The notes under the pieces: generated by a model
What the model was told of the DNA's origin: nothing
Database searches by the model: none
The model's input: only the letters and a program-made list of their open reading frames with translations
NCBI GenBank assembly: GCA_013216135.1
Contig: JABSOS010000011.1
Location: 30,168-94,167 of the forward strand
From: Candidatus Caenarcanales bacterium
GTDB lineage: Bacteria; Cyanobacteriota; Vampirovibrionia; LMEP-6097
Reading direction: 5' to 3'
Length of the DNA stretch: 64,000 nt
Part shown: positions 1-11,569 of the stretch, piece by piece
Position numbering within the stretch: the first letter of the stretch is position 1
Layout of the letters: each line of letters begins with the position of its first letter
Program-made: the position numbers and the translations under genes

Positions 1-521
1 TAAGAGTAATCTCCAGTGGTAAATGAATTGATTTTAGTTTTGATTTGCTTATCAAAGAAACTTTCTTTCTGTTGAGATCCTAAAAGAGTAAATGTACTTG
101 GTGTTTCTCCGTCACCGGTGCTATAAAATACAGATTCACGCTCACCTATTAGGGTTTTAGTTTCTGCAGGTGTTGCGGCTTTTTTTGTTTTTGATTCTGG
201 TTTATAAATTAATAGATGCTCTTTAATCTCATCAGATTCTATGAATTTTGCCATTAGGCTTATAATTGGGATCTCTTCATTTATTACCTTATGGACCATG
301 GTTGATGTTAAGTCTTTAAGTTTTTTAAGACTAGTTTCATCGATAGAATTTCTTAGTAAAGTTTGACCTTTATAAGTTTTATTAGCAAGATTGCCATGGA
401 AATCACCTCCAGTTGTAAAATCTTCTTGAGATTTATTTTCAGGAGGAATAAAGCTTGGTGGGTTTTTTACTACCGGCATTTGAATATGTTGAAGATTGGT
501 TTTTAATAAGTTGGTTTTCAT
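1..521 (-). CDS. Hypothetical protein, partial (runs off the window edge)
   Basis: ATG at 521 opens a frame (MKTNLLKTNLQHIQMPVVKNPPSFIPPENK...) with no stop seen down to position 1. Absent from the ORF track because the stop lies outside the window. Confidence 0.6.
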   Translation of the reverse strand, partial: MKTNLLKTNLQHIQMPVVKNPPSFIPPENKSQEDFTTGGDFHGNLANKTYKGQTLLRNSIDETSLKKLKDLTSTMVHKVINEEIPIISLMAKFIESDEIKEHLLIYKPESKTKKAATPAETKTLIGERESVFYSTGDGETPSTFTLLGSQQKESFFDKQIKTKINSFTTGDYS

Positions 522-560
522 TCACAATGCTTAAGATAATAGCATGGGCGGTTTATTTTA

Positions 561-569
561 AATGGGGCA
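561..569 (+). repeat. Distal att core (duplicated tRNA-His 3' end)
   Basis: AATGGGGCA is identical to 10178-10186. Its reverse complement TGCCCCATT is the last 7 nt of tRNA-His plus 2 nt. Confidence 0.7.
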
Positions 570-805
570 CGGCTGGTTAACGATGTTTGCGAGAGTTTGG
601 TTGCTTTGTGAATTAATACATTATCATGGTCGCTTGGTTAGGGGAGTTTACCTTTGTTGCTGATTATAGTTAGTGAGAGTTTTATTAGAACTATTCTTAA
701 GTACTGAAGTTAAAATTTTATAGTATGTAAATGGTTTCTGAATATATACTAAATCGACACAATTAGTTAAAAAAACAGATATATTAAGATTGATAAGATA
801 TTCAT

Positions 806-1753
806 ATGAGGCTAATTAATAAGTTGCTAAACATTATTACTAAAATTTTTAGATATTTATTTAGTTTTATTATTTTTATATTTAAATGGGTTCTTCCACT
901 ATCATTACTATTAGCCATATCGGTGCAACTTTCTATATTCTTAGTAGATAAAATCCCTCAAAAGTTTCAAAATAATGACCTTCTTATTGCAGTAATACCT
1001 GCCATTATATCTTTTAGTTTTTTGAAATGGATAGAAGCATACCTTCATGTATTAAATAAAAAAGGGAAGCATTTGAAAAAAGTTAATATGAACCTTTCCG
1101 AGTTAAATAGTATCTATCAAACCTCGTATCTAAATCTAAATATGATTAATAGTAAGTTAAAGTCATGTAAGCAAGTTTTTAATGATTTTTCAGATGAAAA
1201 TTTTAGAGCAAATTTGTATTCTGATGATTTTATAGAATTCTCTCCAGTTACCTCAGATATGTTTGAAGATCTATTAAATGTTAGTTTAATAAATAGTATT
1301 GAGTCAATTAGATTGCAGTTGGTGACAAATAATTTATCAATTAAAAATATAAATGCAAGGCATCTTCAAGTCCAAAGTAAAATTTTTAGTTTTGTTGAAA
1401 AATACCATCACTATCAAAACTATGATGATTTAGAGTATAGATCTTTATTATATGAATTGAAAAATTTAATCGACATTCTATCAAATCTAAGAAAAGAAAT
1501 AACTAAAACTCAATACTATATATTATTTACACTTGGTAAATTTACTATTGCACATCAGGAAGATCCAATATCATTTGATGTTTTCGTGATAACTAATTAC
1601 TTGAGTGAATTTAACCGCAGAGATGAATATAACAGTTTTGATAAGTTACTTAAAGGCTCATTTGCAAAACAGTTTAAGCTTAATCCTTCGAAAGTTCGTT
1701 TTTTTAGAAAGCTACTAACTATTGAATTAAATAGAATTAAGCAAATAACTTAA
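806..1753 (+). CDS. Hypothetical membrane protein (two N-terminal hydrophobic segments, helical C-terminus), island cargo
   Basis: 315-aa ORF with hydrophobic stretches at about aa 17-46 and 59-75. Extended -10 (tgaTAAGAT, hexamer 794-799) lies 6 nt before the ATG. Confidence 0.65.
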   Translation: MRLINKLLNIITKIFRYLFSFIIFIFKWVLPLSLLLAISVQLSIFLVDKIPQKFQNNDLLIAVIPAIISFSFLKWIEAYLHVLNKKGKHLKKVNMNLSELNSIYQTSYLNLNMINSKLKSCKQVFNDFSDENFRANLYSDDFIEFSPVTSDMFEDLLNVSLINSIESIRLQLVTNNLSIKNINARHLQVQSKIFSFVEKYHHYQNYDDLEYRSLLYELKNLIDILSNLRKEITKTQYYILFTLGKFTIAHQEDPISFDVFVITNYLSEFNRRDEYNSFDKLLKGSFAKQFKLNPSKVRFFRKLLTIELNRIKQIT

Positions 1754-1841
1754 TCTTATGCAATTTTGATTATATTTGGAAACAGTTTATTGAAGAGTGA
1801 TTGACGAGATACTTCAGATAGTAAAATATTGATTAAAATAT

Positions 1842-2534
1842 ATGACTTTAAAGTATAGAGGTAGCAAAAATCAACTTCAAACTATCATATCAAGTGAATT
1901 TACTGATGTTTCAATTGAAGATCAAGTTGGTAAGGTAAAATTTACTTTTCCTGGAGGACAAATTATTAACTGGTGGGAGAGTAAGGGTACATTACAAATC
2001 CAAGGTACACCAGATGATAGTTTTAATAAAAAAATTCAAATGCTAATAGATAAACAAGCTAATATCACTAAAACAAATAAGGTTTTTGTAGTTTATGGGC
2101 ACGATGAAGCAGCCCGAAGAGATTTAGATGGTCTATTAAGAAGATGGAAATTAGATCCAGTTATTTTGGATCAATTACCCTCAGAAGGTCAAACAATAAT
2201 TGAAAAACTAGAGAAATATTGCTTAGATCAAAATGTGGAATACGGAATAGTCTTGGCTACCCCAGATGATGAAGGGTTTAAAGCAGATCATCCAGATGAA
2301 AAAGCATATAGAGTTAGACAAAATGTAGTCCTAGAGCTTGGGATGTTACTAGGTCGCTTAGGCAGAAAAAAAGTTGCAGTATTAATTAAAAATCAGGATA
2401 AGATGGATAGACCATCAGATATTAGTGGGGTTATATACATTCCTTTTAAAGATGACTTACAAAAAGAGGTACAAGTCAATCTAGCTAAGGAAATGAATAC
2501 CCAAGGTTTTAATATTAATCTCATGGATTTGTAA
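1842..2534 (+). CDS. TIR-like-domain nucleotide-binding protein (PF10137/Cap12-type TIR), putative defence NADase
   Basis: Motifs KVFVVYGHD, GQTIIEKLE, ATPDD, RQNVVLELG (conserved Glu) and PSDISGVIY typify this family. Small N-terminal alpha/beta domain. Confidence 0.85.
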   Translation: MTLKYRGSKNQLQTIISSEFTDVSIEDQVGKVKFTFPGGQIINWWESKGTLQIQGTPDDSFNKKIQMLIDKQANITKTNKVFVVYGHDEAARRDLDGLLRRWKLDPVILDQLPSEGQTIIEKLEKYCLDQNVEYGIVLATPDDEGFKADHPDEKAYRVRQNVVLELGMLLGRLGRKKVAVLIKNQDKMDRPSDISGVIYIPFKDDLQKEVQVNLAKEMNTQGFNINLMDL

Positions 2535-2917
2535 TATATCTTCAGGACAAGTATTATTCCAGTCAGAGTCTCAAGATATTAAATCTTGTAATTAAATTGT
2601 ATAAAATGCATCCCAATCACACGCTCATCTTTAAAGTTCTAGGTTTCAAACATAATCTATTAATATAGATATCTAAAGAGAAAAACAGCCTCGTTTTAAT
2701 ATAATATATACTTATCTTGAGTGAGATTTCCCTTAACCATAGGCAGAATCAAGTTTCACCTTCAAAAAATCATCTCATTCTCAATAAGAACTCAAAAATC
2801 TGGACAAATAAAGATTCGAAGAAAGAAGGGGCTGAGGGGGAATTAACTCAACTCAGCTTATATATTCCATCACCTCCACGCATTTTTGATAATTTCTAAA
2901 AAAGGTAAAATATAAAT

Positions 2918-3187
2918 ATGGACTTAAAGCAAGACTATGAAGACCTCTTAATGAAAAACAAGAAGTTAAAAAAAGAGATTAAGTCTAAGGAATGTTTTAT
3001 CAGTAAGCTATTACAGCAAAAAAAAGAGTTGAATGAAAAAGTTACTTTACTATTTAATGACCTAGAAAAGTTTAAGGATTACAGAGCTGAAAGATTTCAT
3101 TTGAGAACCCTCAGGATGCAAAGAGTAGAAATCTTGAAAATGTATAACCTTCAACAGAAAGTCTATAAACAAGCAGAAGGGCGCTAA
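2918..3187 (+). CDS. Small coiled-coil hypothetical protein
   Basis: 89-aa ORF, K/E/L heptad-rich, with AAGGT upstream. Confidence 0.55.
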   Translation: MDLKQDYEDLLMKNKKLKKEIKSKECFISKLLQQKKELNEKVTLLFNDLEKFKDYRAERFHLRTLRMQRVEILKMYNLQQKVYKQAEGR

Positions 3188-3233
3188 AGCTTATAGTACT
3201 TGCGAGTTTATTATTAAATACTGTATTGTTTAA

Positions 3234-3440
3234 TTGGAGCTAATAAATTGGTTCTAGGGGTTTAATCACCTCTCACAACTAGTAGTCAGTAGAGAATGAC
3301 TGACTATATAAATACGACATTCTCTGGGATTTTATTTCCAGAGGATTATAGTGTATGTCCAAGGCTGTAAAGCCCAAAGACTATAATAGTCGACTAGTTG
3401 CGATTGATTAACCTCTGGAATTTTGTTTATAAAACTCCAA
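3234..3440 (+). ncRNA. Candidate structured ncRNA / cis-regulatory leader, family unknown
   Basis: Nested stems 3234-39/3435-40, 3252-68/3405-20, 3276-83/3393-3400, 3283-90/3299-3306, 3315-18/3389-92, 3322-29/3336-43 and 3345-52/3380-87, plus a GNRA hairpin GGCT-GTAA-AGCC (3363-74). G-U pairs work on the + strand. Promoter-like TTGCGA(3200)...TATTGT(3224) upstream. Confidence 0.65.
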
Positions 3441-3457
3441 AACAAAAGGAGTAAGAT

Positions 3458-3940
3458 TTGAATAGATTTTATATCGCATTATTAATTTTAATGGTAAGCA
3501 ACCCAGTATATGCACGAAGAGCAAATATGGTTGGTATTTGGCTTCTAGGGCAAAACACTAGTTTGAGTGATGTATTGACTATTAAAGATATAAAAAGTAG
3601 TGGTATTAAAAAACTTAGGTTAGTTGATTTTGATTATTTAGAAAACTCTACTGATAGGAAAATAGCAGAGAACAAAACGGGCTTCCTAATAGGTAGAAGG
3701 CTCTTCTTTGACGTATCATCTTCAACTATCGATAAATCTTATATGCTTAAATTCAATAAAGATTTTACTGGGGGACAATTTATTAGTCTTGGTAGTGATT
3801 TTGGTGGTTGCCTACCTGAAGATGATCTAAAGATAGAACCTGAATCTTATATTTGTAATTTCCCAGCTTCTAAAACAACTTCTTTGAGTCAAGGTGAAAT
3901 ACTTGAGATAGTAAAACTTTTTAGTAAAGCAAATATATAG
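3458..3940 (+). CDS. Exported hypothetical protein
   Basis: TTG start with AAGGAG SD. Sec-type signal peptide MNRFYIALLILMVSNPVYA. Confidence 0.65.
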   Translation: MNRFYIALLILMVSNPVYARRANMVGIWLLGQNTSLSDVLTIKDIKSSGIKKLRLVDFDYLENSTDRKIAENKTGFLIGRRLFFDVSSSTIDKSYMLKFNKDFTGGQFISLGSDFGGCLPEDDLKIEPESYICNFPASKTTSLSQGEILEIVKLFSKANI

Positions 3941-3973
3941 AAACTATACATAAAAATTAATATAATATAAAGA

Positions 3974-5275
3974 ATGGTGCGTAAAATTACAAGCAAAAAA
4001 AATGCTATTGTTGATAACACTTTTGTTAATCTTGATGCCAAAGAATATTTTACAGAATCAGACTTTGCTGCAATACATGAATTAAATGAAAGTTATGTTA
4101 GGCAAATGTGTTCAAAACAAAGAGGGTTAAACTTACCTGATGAATATTATGCTATTCCTCCTAGACAAGGTTACTTGATTAAAAAAAAGAAGGCATCTGT
4201 TCTAAATACATATGTCAAAGAAGGATCAAATATTCACCCAGCCTATCTTGAAGATCTAAATACTTTCTGTGACTTTGATTCAGAAATTGATTCTTGCATG
4301 GCTTTACTCATGATTTCCTTACCCAACAAATGTAAATTTTTGATATATAACTCTTTAGATCATGCACAGAAAGAAAAGCATGTTTTTTTGAACAATTATT
4401 TAGGCGAGAATATCCTATACAAGTTATTTAGCAAGATTCAAAATGAGTTATCAAGCTCAATTCTATCGAACTATTCAATGCTCATAATTAGGTGGCTAAT
4501 TATCTCAGGAATAACTATCCCACTCAGATTGAAATATTTACATGATTCTTTAATAAGTGGAGATAGTGGATATGATTTTTGTAGTTACTGTGGAAAACAC
4601 TTACCGATAAACAAAAAATATTCCAGTAATCAAATTAGACAAAAAAATTATCTATTTTGCTGTAAAACACATAAGGACGATTTCAACAAAGACTCTTTTT
4701 TAATTAAGGAGTTAGTCTCCTATAGAGAATCCTTTGGCAGAATTTATACGTCTGATAACTATAACAAAATTGAGCCTGATTTTCACCACAAGACGATAGA
4801 GCTTATTGATAACATTTTCGAGAGATTTACACAACTTATTAAAAGACCAAAAAAAATGACTTTAGGTAAGGAGATTAAAACATATTCAAAACTTGACGAT
4901 GTTCGAAAAGAAGTTTTAAAACTATTTAAGTTGAAGAACGAGACTGATATTACTTTTAAAAGATTTGATGATTTTATTGAAAAATACTGTTACAAGCATA
5001 TAAGCTCTGTTGAAAAAAGAAATGAGAAAATAGAAGCAATTATTGATTTGCTCGCTGACGATACACCAAATGAAGAAGCGATTTCAAAAATTGCTGTAGA
5101 TATCTTACCGTCAATCCAAGAACGAATTCTTGCTAATCATCAAAAAAAGAAATCAAAGAAAAAAATAGAAGATGATTTTTATCAAAAATTAATAGAAAGT
5201 CATGATGGTAGGAGTGTAATTCATTACACCCTAATCTCTATAATGCAAAATTATATGAAATCATTTGCAGAGTAA
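3974..5275 (+). CDS. Putative DNA-binding protein (N-terminal HTH, central Cys/His Zn-finger-like motif)
   Basis: FTESDFAAIHELNESYVRQMC resembles a MerR/excisionase-type HTH. CSYCGK...FCCKTH is a treble-clef-like motif. TATAAT at 3961-66 lies 7 nt before the ATG. Confidence 0.55.
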   Translation: MVRKITSKKNAIVDNTFVNLDAKEYFTESDFAAIHELNESYVRQMCSKQRGLNLPDEYYAIPPRQGYLIKKKKASVLNTYVKEGSNIHPAYLEDLNTFCDFDSEIDSCMALLMISLPNKCKFLIYNSLDHAQKEKHVFLNNYLGENILYKLFSKIQNELSSSILSNYSMLIIRWLIISGITIPLRLKYLHDSLISGDSGYDFCSYCGKHLPINKKYSSNQIRQKNYLFCCKTHKDDFNKDSFLIKELVSYRESFGRIYTSDNYNKIEPDFHHKTIELIDNIFERFTQLIKRPKKMTLGKEIKTYSKLDDVRKEVLKLFKLKNETDITFKRFDDFIEKYCYKHISSVEKRNEKIEAIIDLLADDTPNEEAISKIAVDILPSIQERILANHQKKKSKKKIEDDFYQKLIESHDGRSVIHYTLISIMQNYMKSFAE

Positions 5276-5334
5276 TTTGAGTTTTGCTCTGCATTGAGAA
5301 ATACCAAGAATTCCAGAGGTTATGATTTTTTGTA

Positions 5335-5505
5335 ATGAATAATCAAGACACAAAGAAAGTAAACTTCTGCCTTACTACAAAAACAAGAAGTCAAGTTGAA
5401 GAGCTAGCTAAGATTTGGGATCGCTCAATTTCAAGTACTTTACGTTTTCTTATTACTAAGGCATACAAACAAGAATTACAAGGAGGTGAGCATGAAGCTA
5501 CCTGA
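5335..5505 (+). CDS. Ribbon-helix-helix (CopG/Arc-like) regulator, 56 aa (not in ORF track)
   Basis: Manual translation MNNQDTKKVNFCLTTKTRSQVEELAKIWDRSISSTLRFLITKAYKQELQGGEHEAT shows a beta strand plus LAK..RS.S..LR..I pattern. TATGAT at 5321-26 lies 8 nt upstream. Confidence 0.75.
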   Translation: MNNQDTKKVNFCLTTKTRSQVEELAKIWDRSISSTLRFLITKAYKQELQGGEHEAT

Positions 5506-5647
5506 TGACTGCATTAATGAGTATCAAGAAATTCATTTTCAAGAATTTGGCTTTCGTTTACCTAGAAAGATAGCTGAACAGAAAGCAAAGAACTTATTAA
5601 AACTATCAGAAAGACTCATCCATATCAAATTAAAGGGAGATAAATAA
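5492..5647 (+). CDS. Small 51-aa helical protein (not in ORF track)
   Basis: Strong SD AGGAGGT at 5481-87. Sequence MKLPDDCINEYQEIHFQEFGFRLPRKIAEQKAKNLLKLSERLIHIKLKGDK. The stop overlaps the next ATG (TAATG). Confidence 0.75.
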   Translation: MKLPDDCINEYQEIHFQEFGFRLPRKIAEQKAKNLLKLSERLIHIKLKGDK

Positions 5648-6147
5648 TGGATATAAATAAAAAGCCTGATTCCAATCACCACAACAAGAATCAGACCTCT
5701 AACAATAAAAACAATACTAACATACTAAAAAGCTTTGAAAATCTATTCAAAAGCTGGAACCCACTCCAGCAAAGCTTGAAAACCAAAAAAGGAGATCTCA
5801 AAGACATGGCTATTCTGGCAGAATGTAACAATTGTCTAGATGATCTAATTAGAGACATGCAATCTAGGTTCACGAATGACCAAATTAGGTCTTTTAGTAA
5901 TAGTGCTAGAGCTTATTACTTGAAGCAAGTAGAATCTATATGGTTCTTTAGTCCAAAACTATTTAATATAGACCCAGCTAATATATTTAAGAAAGAAAAA
6001 GTTGCTATAGCTAAAAAGTGCATAAAATTATCACAACTTTTTAACACTTTACTGAAATCTACACAAAGAAAAACAGTTCAGAGATCTGAATTATATATCG
6101 ATCACTTTTCTTTAATTTTAGATAAGCTCATCAAGGAGGTTAAATAA
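5647..6147 (+). CDS. Hypothetical protein in replication operon
   Basis: 166-aa ORF translationally coupled to both neighbours. Confidence 0.65.
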   Translation: MDINKKPDSNHHNKNQTSNNKNNTNILKSFENLFKSWNPLQQSLKTKKGDLKDMAILAECNNCLDDLIRDMQSRFTNDQIRSFSNSARAYYLKQVESIWFFSPKLFNIDPANIFKKEKVAIAKKCIKLSQLFNTLLKSTQRKTVQRSELYIDHFSLILDKLIKEVK

Positions 6148-8343
6148 ATGAATTATCTCTCAGACAAACATTTAGCCAAGCTAAAAAGCTCAGCTATTAC
6201 AGAGGACTCTATAAAGCCCTCTGAAGCTGAAACTATTGACCTTGAAACTATTTTAAATAAAGGCTTTAAAGCATTAACCCCTGATAAAAAAGAATCACTG
6301 TTACAAGAGAAGTATATAAAACTATCTCTATATCTACCATTCTTTGATATTGAAGGGAATAAAATTCAGGATATCAAAACTGGAAAAGAACTTGGAATTA
6401 TAAGACCTGATTACACTGAAGAAGCACAAGCTAAATTTCAAAATCTTCCAAAATACCTATGCTTACCTAAATCTATTCAGTCACGCTTCTATCTTCATTT
6501 CCCCAAAGGCTTTAACTGGATTATGTATTTAGAAAATTACAAAGAGCTTGAAGTAGATGAACCTAAAGGACAAATAGCCCTCACGGAAGGCATTCTCAAG
6601 AGCATTGCAGGAACTAGTAACAACTATCCCACAGTTGGTCTGACATCTGTATTTTGCTTTTGCAAAAATGGTTTAAATTCTCCACTAATACCAGAGCTTA
6701 GAGATTTATTGAAAAATAAAAATATAGATTTTTCAGTAATCTTTGATGGAGACAAGCAACAAAAAACAGGTGTGAAGCAAGCAGAAACAGCACTTGTAGA
6801 AAAAGCTTTCCTCGAAACTGGCAAGAAATTAAGTGTAATAGATCTGCCACAGGAAGAAGGCTGTAAAGGACTGGATGACTTTATTTATACAAAAGGCTCA
6901 GAAGCACTAAAAGAACTTAAACCTAGATATATAGAGACCCCTATTATTAAAAACTTAAAGCTTAAATTAATTCCAGATATTCCAAAGAATGCACTTCCTG
7001 ATATATATAAAGAGTGTATAAAAGATACTGAAAGAAATGTAGAGAATTGTATAGAAGCAGTACCAATGGTTTTATTCACCCAAGGAGCAGGCTTTATAGG
7101 GAATAAAGCTAAGCTAAATGGTAAATTCCCTAATCTTTATGCTGAAACCCTTGCTTTGACTACTGGTGGAAAAACTACAGCTGCTAATAGATATAGCTAT
7201 CCTTTAAGGTTCATAAATAAAGCTCTGGAAAAGGAGTATAGAGCTAAACTTGAAGCTGGTGAAGAGAATGTGAAATCTGAAGAACTGACTATCGCTGGAT
7301 TCACACAACAGGGTATTGAATTAACTTTGGCTCAAAGAAAACATCCAGTGCTGATCATGCTTGAAAACAGTGAGTTTGAGAATTTCTATGCTCTTCTAAA
7401 TGCAGATTACAATGCTAGTTTAAGTAGCTTTGTTACTAAAGCCTATGACAATTTGCCATTAATTCCTATGCACAGTAAGGGTAACTTATTAAACAGCTCT
7501 TTAAAGTTAAGTACTATCTATGATCCAGCTATTAGTATCGCTGGAGTTCATACCTTTACTTCAATGCTTAGCTCCAAGCCTAAAGGCTATAAAGACACAG
7601 GCTTTGATAATCGCTTCATGAAATATGTTGGGAAAAACAATAAAGGTATAAGAATTCCTGAAATAAAGTCAATACCCCAAGAGCTTGAGCAAAAGCTTTT
7701 AGATATCTACACCCTAGTTCATAATCACTTTAGAAGCTTAGATGAAACATTAGAGTTCAAGTATTCTGAAGAAGCAAAGCAAATCTATCACCGTTTCTAT
7801 GACCAGTATAAAGACTTTGAAGATGAGAGTCCAGAAAGTAGCTTGCTACCTTATATGAGACGTTCTGTATGTGATTTCTTACCTAAGTTATGTTTACAGT
7901 TTGAGATCATAGAAAGAGCTGAACTAATAGTAAATAACTTTGAAGCTGGAGAGTGGCAAGAAAGATTCCAGCAAGCTCTTGCAGAAAATAAATTATTTAT
8001 CTCAAAAGAAGTAATGCTCAAAGCTATAGAGTGGTCAAAATATTTTATTAAAAGTGCAAAGTATGTAATTAATAATTACTATGATTCTGATGCCGAGTTC
8101 GACTCCAGAGCTGACAAGGTACTCAAACTATTAGCGAAGTTTCCAAAAGGAATACAAGCTACTTCTTTAAGACGTGAAGCAGGTATGCACTATAAAGGAA
8201 CTACAGCTAAAGAGTTTTATGAGTTACTTGATTACTTAGAAGATATGGATCAATTAAACGTAAAACAAGATCCAAACAATAAGAGATCAAAGCTAGTCAC
8301 TCTCAAAAAGCACCTAATCACCAACCATCACAAGGACGAGTGA
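6148..8343 (+). CDS. Primase-replicase: TOPRIM (DUF3854-like) plus DUF3987/YfjI-like P-loop domain
   Basis: TOPRIM motifs IALTEGILKS, IFDGD and KGLDDFI. C-terminal PNLY..LALTTGGKTT, SEF, GFDNRF and a terminal wHTH-like segment. SD AAGGAGGT. Confidence 0.75.
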   Translation: MNYLSDKHLAKLKSSAITEDSIKPSEAETIDLETILNKGFKALTPDKKESLLQEKYIKLSLYLPFFDIEGNKIQDIKTGKELGIIRPDYTEEAQAKFQNLPKYLCLPKSIQSRFYLHFPKGFNWIMYLENYKELEVDEPKGQIALTEGILKSIAGTSNNYPTVGLTSVFCFCKNGLNSPLIPELRDLLKNKNIDFSVIFDGDKQQKTGVKQAETALVEKAFLETGKKLSVIDLPQEEGCKGLDDFIYTKGSEALKELKPRYIETPIIKNLKLKLIPDIPKNALPDIYKECIKDTERNVENCIEAVPMVLFTQGAGFIGNKAKLNGKFPNLYAETLALTTGGKTTAANRYSYPLRFINKALEKEYRAKLEAGEENVKSEELTIAGFTQQGIELTLAQRKHPVLIMLENSEFENFYALLNADYNASLSSFVTKAYDNLPLIPMHSKGNLLNSSLKLSTIYDPAISIAGVHTFTSMLSSKPKGYKDTGFDNRFMKYVGKNNKGIRIPEIKSIPQELEQKLLDIYTLVHNHFRSLDETLEFKYSEEAKQIYHRFYDQYKDFEDESPESSLLPYMRRSVCDFLPKLCLQFEIIERAELIVNNFEAGEWQERFQQALAENKLFISKEVMLKAIEWSKYFIKSAKYVINNYYDSDAEFDSRADKVLKLLAKFPKGIQATSLRREAGMHYKGTTAKEFYELLDYLEDMDQLNVKQDPNNKRSKLVTLKKHLITNHHKDE

Positions 8344-8380
8344 TTCAGATTCAAGCTCTAGGCTTGATTATAAGAGGAAA

Positions 8381-8560
8381 ATCACAGAATCACCTGATTT
8401 CTTAGCTCTTTAAATATCTACTTTAAATTTCAAAATTAAAAACGAAGCAAATATAAGAACCTAAAAGATGCGTGATTTTGTGATAATCCTTCAATATCGG
8501 CCGAGAGAGCGGTTATTCACGTCACACTTAAGCAGTGAAAGCACGTGACAGTGTGATTTT
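8381..8560. repeat. TCAC/GTGA repeat cluster, putative replication origin
   Basis: ATCACAGAATCAC (8381-93) is inverted to GTGATTTTGTGAT (8472-84). Also TCACGTCACAC (8517-27) and CACGTGACAGTGTGA (8542-56). Lies directly downstream of the replicase. Confidence 0.5.
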
Positions 8561-8611
8561 TAATGAAAAGATAAATAAATTTAGTTAATATAATCAAAAG
8601 GAAACCTTTAA

Positions 8612-10201
8612 ATGAAAGTAGCACTTTATGTAAGAAAAAGCTCTGAAGACTCCAGTAAACAAATCCAGAGTATTGAAAATCAATTAGAGATTTTAAAAGC
8701 TAAAGCAAAAAAAGAAGATCTTAAAATTATTGAGATTTATCAAGAATCTAAGTCAGCAAAGAAACCATATAAAAGAGAAGCTTTTAATAAAATGCTTGCA
8801 GATTTACAAGACAGAAAATTTGAAGCTATTTTATGCTGGAAATTAGATAGATTAAGTCGTAACCCTATTGAAGGTGGCATAATACAGCACCTTCTATTAG
8901 AAGGAAGTCTAAGCCAAATCATCACTTATGAAAGACGTTACTATCCAAGTGACAATAGCTTAATGATGAATATGGAGCTAGGAATGGCGGCTGAGTATTC
9001 ATTAGCTTTAGGCAAAAATGTAAAAAGAGGAATGAATTTTAAAGTAGATAAAGGCGTTTACCCCAATACAGCACCTTTAGGATATCTAAATATAACCAAG
9101 CCTAATGGTGAAAAGACTATAGAACTAGATCCTGAAAGAGCACCTATCGTTCAAAAATTATGGCGTATGCTCCTAAGTGGTAATACTGTAATGGGGGAAC
9201 TTGTTGAGCAAGCAGCTTCTATGGGACTTAGAACCAGAGCTTCAGCTAATACACCAGAGAAGAAAGTTTCAAGACATGGCTTGCATTGTATTTTCTCTAA
9301 TCCTTTCTATTATGGAATGTTTAGATGGGCAAACGAATTACATCATGGTACTCACTCCACTATGGTTACTAAAGAAGAGTTTGATAAAGCTCAAAAGATT
9401 ATCTCAGCTAAAAAATGCGCTCCAAGAAAAGCTAAATATAAATTCCCTTTAAAGGGTTTTATTACTTGCGGAGAATGCGGAGCAAGTGTAACAGCAGAGC
9501 ATAAGAATAAAAAAAGAGCTGATGGTTCTATCCATCATAGAATTTATTATCGCTGTACTCACAGAAGAAAAGATTATGACTGCAAGCAACCAATGATTAT
9601 TGAGGCTGAACTTGAAGAGCAAATTATAGAATTACTTGATTCAATTAAAATTAATAAGGCTTTTGTTTCATGGGTGAAAAAATGGCTAGTAGATTTTAGC
9701 CAAGAACAATCTGAAAAGCAAAAAACTATTCGAGAAATCCAAAAGAATCAACTCAACAAAATCGATAATCAAATCGAAAGATTACTTGAGATGAGAATCA
9801 ATGAAGAGATAGACGCTGAACTTTTCAAAATTAAAAAAGATAACTTGGTTCTGGATAAAAAAGCTATCGAAAAAGAAATGAGTGTTAATACAGATATGGA
9901 CGATTCTAGAATTGATACTACTGTAGAGATATTGGATTTCTGTAAACAGGCTAAGTATTTATTTGAAAATGGAGATTATAACGATAAACAATTAGTTTTA
10001 AATACTTTAGGTTCACGACTTTATCTAAAAGACAAAAAACTAAGAGTAGAGCTAGCTAAACCCTTCCAACTAATACAAGACTCAGTATCTCAAGAATGGG
10101 TGCTAAATCCTAGGTTCACCACCCTCAAAACAAAGACCTCGCAAGGCGATGATACACTTACGAGGTCTCTTATCGATAATGGGGCAACCGACGGGATTTG
10201 A
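8612..10201 (+). CDS. Large serine recombinase (resolvase + recombinase + Zn-ribbon + coiled coil)
   Basis: YVRKSS catalytic Ser, WKLDRLSRN, APLGY, NPFYYG, CGECG...YYRC. Confidence 0.95.
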   Translation: MKVALYVRKSSEDSSKQIQSIENQLEILKAKAKKEDLKIIEIYQESKSAKKPYKREAFNKMLADLQDRKFEAILCWKLDRLSRNPIEGGIIQHLLLEGSLSQIITYERRYYPSDNSLMMNMELGMAAEYSLALGKNVKRGMNFKVDKGVYPNTAPLGYLNITKPNGEKTIELDPERAPIVQKLWRMLLSGNTVMGELVEQAASMGLRTRASANTPEKKVSRHGLHCIFSNPFYYGMFRWANELHHGTHSTMVTKEEFDKAQKIISAKKCAPRKAKYKFPLKGFITCGECGASVTAEHKNKKRADGSIHHRIYYRCTHRRKDYDCKQPMIIEAELEEQIIELLDSIKINKAFVSWVKKWLVDFSQEQSEKQKTIREIQKNQLNKIDNQIERLLEMRINEEIDAELFKIKKDNLVLDKKAIEKEMSVNTDMDDSRIDTTVEILDFCKQAKYLFENGDYNDKQLVLNTLGSRLYLKDKKLRVELAKPFQLIQDSVSQEWVLNPRFTTLKTKTSQGDDTLTRSLIDNGATDGI

Positions 10202-10256
10202 ACCCGCGAATACCGGAATCACAACCCGGGGCCTTAACCACTTGGCGACGGCTGCC
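10180..10256 (-). tRNA. tRNA-His (GTG)
   Basis: GGCAGCCGTCGCCAAGTGGTTAAGGCCCCGGGTTGTGATTCCGGTATTCGCGGGTTCAAATCCCGTCGGTTGCCCCA. Has the G-1:C73 pair, GTG anticodon, TTCAA T-loop and encoded CCA. Confidence 0.97.
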
Positions 10257-10303
10257 ATATTCGCAAAAGAAATTTTATCATGCTAAGGAAGGCTTATTCT
10301 GAA

Positions 10304-11569
10304 TTAACAAGAAAGTTTTAACTCTTCTAAAAGAGTGTCGAGCTCATAAGGCTTAGGAATATATGTATTAGCTCCAGCTTCTAGAAAGTTTCTATAACCA
10401 GGAACATTACTAGCGACGATAATATTCAGATCAGCGATACCATCATATTTATTAAGCTTTTTACAGAGTTCCTCAAAGCCAGGTAAACCCATTTTGGCAG
10501 CTTCAATTACTAGAAAACCAGGTCTTACAGTATCTAAGTCTTTTAATAGATCCTTAGGGCTTGAATGAGAGGCTTCAAAGCTATCAAGTTCTAATCTGTC
10601 AACTAACAGCTCAGCAAAGTCTTTATCTTCTTCAATGATTACTACTTTTTTATTAGTAAGGTGTTTTCGTTTATTGAATTTATTTAAAAGTGCTTGCTCA
10701 ATTAAATCTGATCCAGACAGGAATTTTCTATCAAGGCTAGTACAAGATGAAATGTTGAGTGTCACTAATTTTTCTTTTCTTCTGACCTTATGAGGGGCAG
10801 AGTAGACTATATATTGGTTTTCAAAGTCTTTTTTATTGTAGACTTTCTCTAAAATCGCTGAAAATTCATTTTCAAGCTCTTCATAAATATCATTTATGTT
10901 TTGCCTTGAGCCTAGTAGAACAAAGTTATCCTTTCCTAAGTGACCTATGAAAAGATCGCTATCTTTCACTAAATCTGCAAGCATTGAGGCTGACTGTTTA
11001 ATTAAATTATCTACGTTCTTAACGCCGTACATGTAGTTATACTGATTAAGATTATCGATGGTTACGTGAAGTAATTGCCAGTCTTTTATGTCATGAAGGC
11101 AATGCTCAATAATTTCATAAGTTCTATTAATACCTGGAAGTTTAGTGAGTTGGTTTTTCTCAAGTATATTCTTTCTTCTAAGGTATGCAAAGCATTTTAC
11201 GAAGATTTCTTCAGCGCTTAAATCAGAGTCCAAGAAATCATCGAAGCCTTCCTCTATATAGGAAAATGCTTTTGATTTATCTTTCTTTTTATTACCTAAA
11301 AGAATTAATTTATAGATGTTATAGCGGGATTTTTGCTTTTCACTAATAGTTTCATAATCGAAACCCTGAGCGTACATGTCCTCATTCACTATCAATATTT
11401 CAGGTTTGTAATCATATAGAATATACTTGAGATCTTCTAGGTTGTTACATTCTAGAAGATAAATTCCGTTTGCGTGACATTTGTCTATAAAGTTTTCTTG
11501 GTTTTGCAGCCTAAGCTTAGATTTTTCAGATGCTATGTGGACTATATATTTTTTAGGTATTAATCCCAC
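10304..11569 (-). CDS. Response regulator-like protein: REC-like + degenerate GGDEF + REC-like
   Basis: N-terminal KPEILIV..D/GFDDFL. NQLTKLPG...GHLGKDNF replaces the GG[D/E]xF signature. C-terminal KVVIIEED...GANTYIPKPY. Confidence 0.75.
   Translation of the reverse strand: MGLIPKKYIVHIASEKSKLRLQNQENFIDKCHANGIYLLECNNLEDLKYILYDYKPEILIVNEDMYAQGFDYETISEKQKSRYNIYKLILLGNKKKDKSKAFSYIEEGFDDFLDSDLSAEEIFVKCFAYLRRKNILEKNQLTKLPGINRTYEIIEHCLHDIKDWQLLHVTIDNLNQYNYMYGVKNVDNLIKQSASMLADLVKDSDLFIGHLGKDNFVLLGSRQNINDIYEELENEFSAILEKVYNKKDFENQYIVYSAPHKVRRKEKLVTLNISSCTSLDRKFLSGSDLIEQALLNKFNKRKHLTNKKVVIIEEDKDFAELLVDRLELDSFEASHSSPKDLLKDLDTVRPGFLVIEAAKMGLPGFEELCKKLNKYDGIADLNIIVASNVPGYRNFLEAGANTYIPKPYELDTLLEELKLSC

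Follow-up and report, generated by a model that had tools for sequence, protein, structure and literature searches.

A tRNA-His island in a Caenarcanales bacterium carries a serine integrase gene that reads through its own attachment site

Introduction

Why does the gene of an integrase run across its own attachment site, and does the change of the C-terminus that comes with it serve the protein? The question is raised by a 9.6-kb island (561-10186) at a transfer RNA (tRNA) gene, tRNA-His, in a Candidatus Caenarcanales bacterium. The stretch of DNA analysed, called the window, is G000:C3:30168-94167, 64 kb of a 3.08-Mb assembly (G000), and positions given with no other label refer to it. The last gene of the island encodes a large serine recombinase (integrase, int), and its open reading frame (ORF) continues through the core of the attachment (att) site into the tRNA gene. 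The free and the integrated state would therefore by construction specify two different ends of the same protein.

For the insertion of large DNA into genomes, serine integrases are the main tools; in the textbook view they do not use tRNA genes. The island in the window is part of a very large clade, apparently undescribed, that does use them. We suggest that int is built over its own attP (the site of the free element) as a compact module and that the tail of the protein is set by DNA recognition, and we consider this explanation of the integrated island probable. The original prediction for this locus held that the two ends could form a built-in state switch.

The island and its boundaries

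The features of the left (attL) and right (attR) junction are listed here; the arms are assigned by comparison with related elements and should be read as putative.

540..560, no strand assigned: B arm on the chromosome side of attL, rich in T and once the trailer of tRNA-His; no likeness to the left flanks of other elements
561..569, plus strand: attL core copy, AATGGGGCA; the same core is found at both ends of related elements
570..626, plus strand: P' arm of a His-type attP; codons 570-611 give the free-form tail RLVNDVCESLVAL and a stop; a homologous arm is present in G015, L026, G022 and L121
8612..10201, plus strand: large serine recombinase (integrase), integrated form, 529 aa, ending NGATDGI-stop; assigned by domains, a PHROG match and the invariant Ser10
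10126..10169, minus strand: terminator-like hairpin and U-run just downstream of tRNA-His, opposite the last int codons; assigned by folding
10150..10177, plus strand: P arm of attP, within the int coding sequence; an integrase-less element in G022 keeps about 30 nt of it
10178..10186, plus strand: attR core copy, which restores the 3' end of tRNA-His; assigned by sequence and tRNA position
10180..10256, minus strand: tRNA-His(gtg) including G-1 at 10256; its antisense acceptor and T-arm form the B' arm and the codons TDGI-stop; assigned by ARAGORN and sequence

The core is a 9-mer with two copies only in the window, where 0.23 copies are expected by chance; over both strands of the assembly it is found 12 times. 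ARAGORN reports a single tRNA, tRNA-His(gtg) at 10180-10255 on the minus strand, and the core consists of the final 7 nt of this tRNA (CCA within) and 2 nt of its trailer.

The tRNA-His locus was compared across relatives (G001, G002, G003, G015, G022 and L026). In G001 and G002, which are from the same genus, a terminator hairpin adjoins tRNA-His and there is no integrase; G002 has the tRNA with its native terminator, no island, and retains the same 9-mer. The core is found at both ends of the elements in G015 (9013 bp apart) and G022 (a mini-element, 2552 bp apart), and L026, another tRNA-His element, has an 11-nt core at both ends, 11502 bp apart. In G015 and G003 a homologous integrase likewise continues in frame into the tRNA, ending KNGATDGI-stop. 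When the attP region of L121 is aligned with the left junctions of G015, L026, G022 and the window, about 25 nt are in common from the core inward, while the outer flanks of attL are unrelated. The B arm at 540-560 matches the T-rich terminator tail next to the tRNA at the unoccupied site of G002 at 9/18 positions by hand count.

The free configuration is seen in L121, a metagenome contig of 11,048 nt with an exact 123-nt terminal repeat and no tRNA, which is a circular assembly by this signature. Its integrase is 56% identical to that of the window, and the ORF is open through the core and the arm, ending IVNGGRLVSAVLDSIT-stop; int, core and P' arm are contiguous and open, up to the end NGGRLVSAVLDSIT-stop. 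L121 is the predicted free configuration, observed in a relative. Free forms sought in IMG/VR gave distant relatives only, at ≤33% identity.

The comparison indicates that the boundaries at 561-569 and 10178-10186 are real and that their match is beyond chance, because relatives share the core and a homologous island-side arm and have unrelated outer flanks.

The integrase and its two C-terminal ends

The ORF at 8612-10201 contains the Resolvase, Recombinase and Zn_ribbon_recom domains. The catalytic domain (PF00239) is matched with an E-value of 1.3e-20 at residues 3-149, both PF07508 (recombinase) and PF13408 (zinc ribbon) are matched, and Y6, R8 and S10 are unchanged across 30 relatives. 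The frame reads through the right core copy and ends SLIDNGATDGI-stop (TRSLIDNGATDGI-stop), where the last four codons (TDGI) and the stop are the antisense of tRNA-His. Read in the same frame, the left core copy gives NGARLVNDVCESLVAL with a stop at 609-611, i.e., NGA-RLVNDVCESLVAL. By translation, the free circle would encode a protein of 538 aa ending NGA-RLVNDVCESLVAL and the integrated island one of 529 aa ending NGA-TDGI. The residues that differ between the states are those after NGA (526 of 529), and all domains lie upstream. Around the 10186|570 junction the motif TTAnCGAT stands at offset 8-15 on both arms, and the core identity is 9 bp.

For this part of the locus the original prediction is borne out. 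The translation of 8612-10201 confirms that the core lies inside the recombinase ORF and is read in frame as NGA; both predicted ends are correct, and the predicted free layout is the one found in L121. The left boundary, proposed from the 9-bp match, agrees with the core and arm common to G015, L026 and G022 and with their unrelated outer flanks.

An AlphaFold model of a free-form relative, P0010 (40-row alignment, mean predicted local distance difference test score (pLDDT) 81, predicted template modelling score 0.41), places long helices at 333-455 after the ribbon strands, i.e., a coiled coil in the zinc-ribbon domain. Confidence holds to about residue 495; at 501-511 and at 525-538 pLDDT is under 50, and the helix of the tail is undocked. 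Similarly, the PHROG integrase profile match on the window protein stops at residue 496/529, and the swapped part begins about 30 residues past the last confidently modelled element. On this view, the residues exchanged between the two states would belong to a flexible C-terminal extension. The swap itself would have little or no regulatory role.

The int gene and tRNA-His are convergent, and transcription of the tRNA had been proposed to run antisense into the 3' end of int. The convergent layout stands; the extent of such transcription is another matter. The minus-strand fold of 10100-10260 has an energy of -61.8 kcal/mol (z -3.67) and consists of a long stem followed by UUUGUUUU. The hairpin at about 10126-10169 sits opposite variable linker codons of int and stands in for the native terminator seen in G001 and G002. 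Because a terminator-like hairpin and a U-run follow tRNA-His, read-through into int is probably held to about 50-75 nt, and antisense transcription is probably short.

As a side observation, the motif W-x-L-x-PRFxTL at int residues ~497-505 (10100-10127) is nearly invariant in the 30 relatives and has low confidence in the P0010 model. It may be a conserved linear motif with a partner.

The same layout in a large clade of serine integrases

Among 7999 candidates scored, 4477 are homologues of the integrase at E≤1e-20. When C-termini were listed for 120 of them, 73/120 were flagged as tRNA-antisense-like by pattern (e.g., those ending WLRGRDSNPRPID and NGGDEGTRTLDP), and of the remaining 47/120 many stop, by eye, 1-3 residues past the antisense of CCA. 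We further examined 161 loci, i.e., the window, 80 genomic and 80 metagenomic loci, of which 24 were not judged (21 ran off the contig and 3 were partial). The int stop lies within a minus-strand tRNA in 83 of the 137 evaluable loci, and 17 tRNA species are used. In 5/137 a tRNA begins 10-99 nt past the int stop. ARAGORN finds no tRNA in 49/137; by eye, several of these have tRNA-like tails at contig ends and several are free-form-like (L042, L054, L055, L083 and L121).

Two of the 49 loci, L028 and L030, overlap a transfer-messenger RNA (tmRNA). Here (L028 11569-11978, L030 11566-11956) the integrase is 44-52% identical to that of the window and ends in the antisense of the tmRNA 3' end, with tails containing NGGGAGVLPP (L028) and NGGGGEELPP (L030). 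Since both genes end in tmRNA antisense, ssrA is among the targets of the clade as well.

Judged from these loci, a very large clade of serine integrases, found in Melainabacteria, Patescibacteria and others, has as its standard layout an int gene placed over attP at a tRNA or tmRNA gene. A 2014 paper states that tRNA genes are not used by serine integrases, and a 2021 review regards integrases with att inside int as exclusive to archaea (PMC8371274). In a literature search that covered mostly non-subscription journals, no description was found of serine integrases with attP inside int or of a tRNA-targeting clade of serine integrases. The clade and its layout are apparently undescribed for serine integrases.

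Recognition by the clade seems to go by the conserved T-arm, and this would account for retargeting among 17 tRNA species and tmRNA. If this is true, these enzymes offer natural landing sites that are nearly universal, along with a readable rule by which arms can be designed.

A peptide tail or a DNA signal?

Pairs of left and right junctions were mapped in 16 elements. When the 10-mer of the tRNA T-loop in the right arm is slid along the island-side arm, the summed matches peak at shift +5 with 86/160; at the other 23 shifts they are 24-63. Rutherford et al. (PMC3783163) found the zinc-ribbon-domain motif of the Listeria integrase to be offset between the two sites, closer to the centre by 5 bp in attB than in attP. 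The letters that are conserved in the tails can be read as a DNA signal, because the T-loop-like motif sits 5 bp further out than in the tRNA. The recurrent D/E-V-x-T in the tails corresponds to the DNA motif GA.GTT..AC. (dots for any base).

As peptides, the tails are poorly conserved. Those in the clade of the window include RLVNDVCESLVAL, GLINDVLALYV, RLVRGVYLCC, RLVSAVLDSIT and CLINNVRHPEV. A hydrophobic tail end had been noted in the original prediction, and a hydrophobic or degradation-tag-like end was considered across the family; about half of the free-form tails end nonpolar (by eye), no more than composition would give, and the feature is not family-wide by reading of the tails.

These observations can be combined in the following way. 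A large serine recombinase would have inserted the island at 561-10186 into tRNA-His, at the acceptor/CCA end. No gene of the island follows that of the recombinase, whose last codons before the core would come from the P arm. The crossover would fall in the NGA codons, which leaves the P' arm at the opposite end of the integrated island, and two protein forms, of 538 aa in the circle and 529 aa in the integrated island, would arise by construction. The overlap could exist since int and attP form one compact module. In the family, the P' arm would copy the T-loop motif of the tRNA with a shift of 5 bp away from the crossover, to the place where binding of the zinc-ribbon domain to attP is expected; the copy is weak in the window.

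Comparison with known systems

The attB (chromosomal site) of Mx8 is reportedly a tRNA gene, and the swap there is said to replace a much longer C-terminal part of the integrase. In Mx8, attP lies inside int, which receives a new 3' end on integration; the resulting protein is still active with changed behaviour (PMC6070905). The likeness to Mx8 (and Mx9), where intP becomes intX, is that the attP core here also falls in the int coding sequence, so that int would gain a new 3' end on integration. However, Mx8 Int is a tyrosine recombinase and the protein in the window has serine recombinase domains only. Further, the change here would concern 4 versus 13 residues of a flexible tail. By analogy, Mx8 is the closest precedent and a better one than BPs or SSV1, the two systems with which the locus had originally been compared.

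In mycobacteriophage BPs, attP reportedly lies in the repressor gene and integration removes a C-terminal degradation tag. It resembles the present case in that the C-terminus of a gene depends on the integration state. It differs in that the core in the window lies in int and not in the Arc-like ORF at 5335-5505, and in that no conserved tag-like feature is found in the tail ends. The archaeal tyrosine integrases of the "suicidal" SSV1 type have their gene broken up into inactive parts, while here all domains stay intact and the tail alone changes.

With the serine integrases of Listeria (A118/LI), phiC31, Bxb1 and SPbeta (SprA) the integrase shares its set of domains, i.e., resolvase, recombinase and a zinc ribbon with a long coiled coil, as well as putative short att sites. 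The 5-bp offset of the zinc-ribbon motif in Listeria matches the T-loop shift of +5 in the family, which is weak in the window. However, none of these four was found described as targeting a tRNA gene or as having attP in the int ORF.

Alternative explanations

Several observations weigh against a compact module with a tail set by DNA recognition. The P' arm of the window is itself weak in its T-loop match (2/10 at +5, 5/10 at +4 and 4/10 at +6). At five Saccharibacteria junctions the similarity runs past the motif to the stop, with an identity of 0.75 for the arm, 0.54 for the tail past the motif and 0.26 beyond the stop. The int frame is open for at least 10 codons past the core at 17/17 left junctions, versus 4/17 and 7/17 in the other frames, and at sites found by the repeat only the numbers are 9/9 versus 3/9 and 2/9; the open frame could mean that the tail is wanted as protein. 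The comparable swap in Mx8 alters the behaviour of the integrase (PMC6070905). As to the boundaries, a syntenic empty site for this genome was not found among the relatives, and the left flanks of five relatives' tRNA-His loci are unlike that of the window. In G002 the gene in the left flank of tRNA-His, encoding a KAP NTPase, maps to G000:C3 ~24000, 6.7 kb left of window position 561. Finally, neither the join of 10186 to 570 nor a skip from 570 to 10186 is present in the assembled contigs of runs X1, X3, X5 and X9; since such contigs drop rare forms, this absence favours neither side.

The open frame and the Mx8 precedent would fit a C-terminal swap that acts as a functional switch of stability, activity or directionality, where the integrated form is, for example, a poorer excisase or one dependent on a recombination directionality factor, like IntP and IntX of Mx8. 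The ORF almost always runs through the core and does not end after PRFxTL, which lies about 20 residues before the core with a variable linker between, and the open stretch past the core is 10-32 codons long. We discount the open frame, because 8/17 sites were picked by the in-frame motif and the arm motifs themselves put stops in the other frames. Several observations speak against a switch. In the Saccharibacteria subgroup, differing codon pairs are 10 synonymous versus 54 non-synonymous, with 44/33/50 differences at the three codon positions, a pattern that gives no clear sign of peptide selection. The int gene of L033 has its stop within the core, with the motif still downstream in the same frame, and in L082, L091 and L092 int stops 10 nt short of the tRNA. 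Integrated tails are whatever the tRNA antisense yields, from 1 to more than 40 residues. With a tail peptide that is unconserved in the clade of the window and of low confidence in the P0010 model, neither conservation nor the model supports the state switch of the original prediction, and an explanation at the DNA level fits; we hold a switch to be unlikely. Should the tail swap matter after all, it would be a second, independent case of an integrase sensing its own integration state.

The G002 flank raises another alternative, in which the 9-bp repeat is coincidental and the true left end is elsewhere, for instance in a 16-kb island extending to the KAP NTPase gene, the neighbour of tRNA-His in G002. 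Between the match to this gene and window position 561 lie a YafQ-like toxin pair, an SPFH protein and ORFs with no assigned function. The 878-aa protein of the left flank has its only homologue in G002, on different short contigs. Two copies or more of the 9-mer are reached in 3/100 shuffles of the window. However, the left core is followed by an arm with homologues in the circular relative, where it comes after int, and in three integrated ones. The strand and the AT skew switch on the left at 521-806: the island ORFs (806-10201) are all on the plus strand, the neighbouring genes are on the minus strand, and the sign of the AT skew flips at both island ends. Within the first 45 kb of the contig, including 30 kb to the left of the window, there is no further copy of the core, nor of its 7-nt tRNA part. 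We therefore regard a coincidental repeat as very improbable.

A third alternative is that the island is a fixed, immobile remnant and that the two isoforms are merely historical. The four runs with no circular or empty-site contig would agree with this, as would a second, foreign P'-like arm at the left end, described below, and the integrase-less derivative in G022. Against this, the int ORF is intact, its catalytic Y6, R8 and S10 are present, and both cores are identical. Parts of the island are present in 17 sequencing runs from 6 studies, and near-identical cargo with a different left end in the metagenomes of other studies suggests recent mobility. A remnant is improbable, more so than the switch, and the compact module remains our preferred explanation.

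Tandem left arms and a probable exchange of modules

The second arm at the left end directly follows the P' arm.

627..690, plus strand: second P'-like arm; a tRNA-Met-type element supplies its core end (TGGTC) and P' arm, and the cargo in common with L025 starts here; assigned by alignment to L025

L025 is a tRNA-Met element in a marine Caenarcaniphilales-type metagenome-assembled genome. Window 627-3882 (TIR gene included) is 97.4% identical to L025 1860-5115, and the match begins inside the attL core of L025; window 6069-10131, with the replication gene and int, is just 75% identical to L025. A contig of run X5, from another study, matches the window from 627 onward only. By these alignments the window reads as a His-type arm (570-626) set before a leftover Met-type arm from 627. 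A block of int and attP, contiguous in the circle and moving as one, would fit both the tandem arms and the mosaic. A long inverted copy of the int 3' end was not found within window 1-11000.

Tandem arms are also seen in L067, which has two left-junction-like sites at 1830 and 2252, 422 nt apart. Both tails are open and similar: RTIEEVITVIKEDLLLT-stop and VIEEVITIIKSEASLV-stop.

The mosaic of His- and Met-type parts hints at hopping between tRNA species. From this, a wider scheme can be speculated, in which the universal T-arm of tRNA and tmRNA genes is what the zinc-ribbon domain reads. Every integration or excision would rewrite the C-terminus of the enzyme, and the free tail would tune stability or direction. 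This would be a self-contained memory of state, like that of Mx8 but independent, and the compact module would let islands hop between tRNA species. We think this scheme, taken as a whole, doubtful.

In a contig of run X9 (seawater), position 663 is joined back to 568 with 7 other letters between, the side being 34 nt. This would be a relative in which the two arm-like segments stand in a different order; the evidence is weak.

Cargo and flanking sequences

The other assigned genes of the island are these.

806..1753, plus strand: cargo ORF, 315 aa, with no family match in family, defence and PHROG profile searches
1842..2534, plus strand: TIR-domain protein, candidate defence system PDC-S35; PF10137 at 6.3e-34, PADLOC PDC-S35 at 6.9e-84
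5335..5505, plus strand: small Arc-like repressor candidate; phrog_3431 at 3e-05
6148..8343, plus strand: primase/helicase-like replication protein (DUF3854, DUF3987); domains and PHROG helicase and primase matches

The G022 mini-element (L020 9838-12398, about 2.5 kb) lies between its two cores at tRNA-His and has no integrase; only the final 13 int codons are left. This natural deletion delimits about 30 nt of the P arm. Its two ORFs are an AbiEi/AbiEii-like pair, judged by eye from sequence alone. The element may have arisen by deletion or be a non-autonomous rider.

The stretch G000:C3:21928-30727, which includes window 1-560, holds the KAP NTPase, an AAA_14/DUF4143 gene, the YafQ-like toxin pair, the SPFH protein and the family-less ORF of 878 aa. 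Synteny with G002 is lacking here, and the stretch may consist of what older insertions at this tRNA have left behind. In G002, about 100 nt between the KAP gene and tRNA-His (L005 887-992) are 75% identical to G000:C49:57936-58041; this may be a small repeat or an RNA gene.

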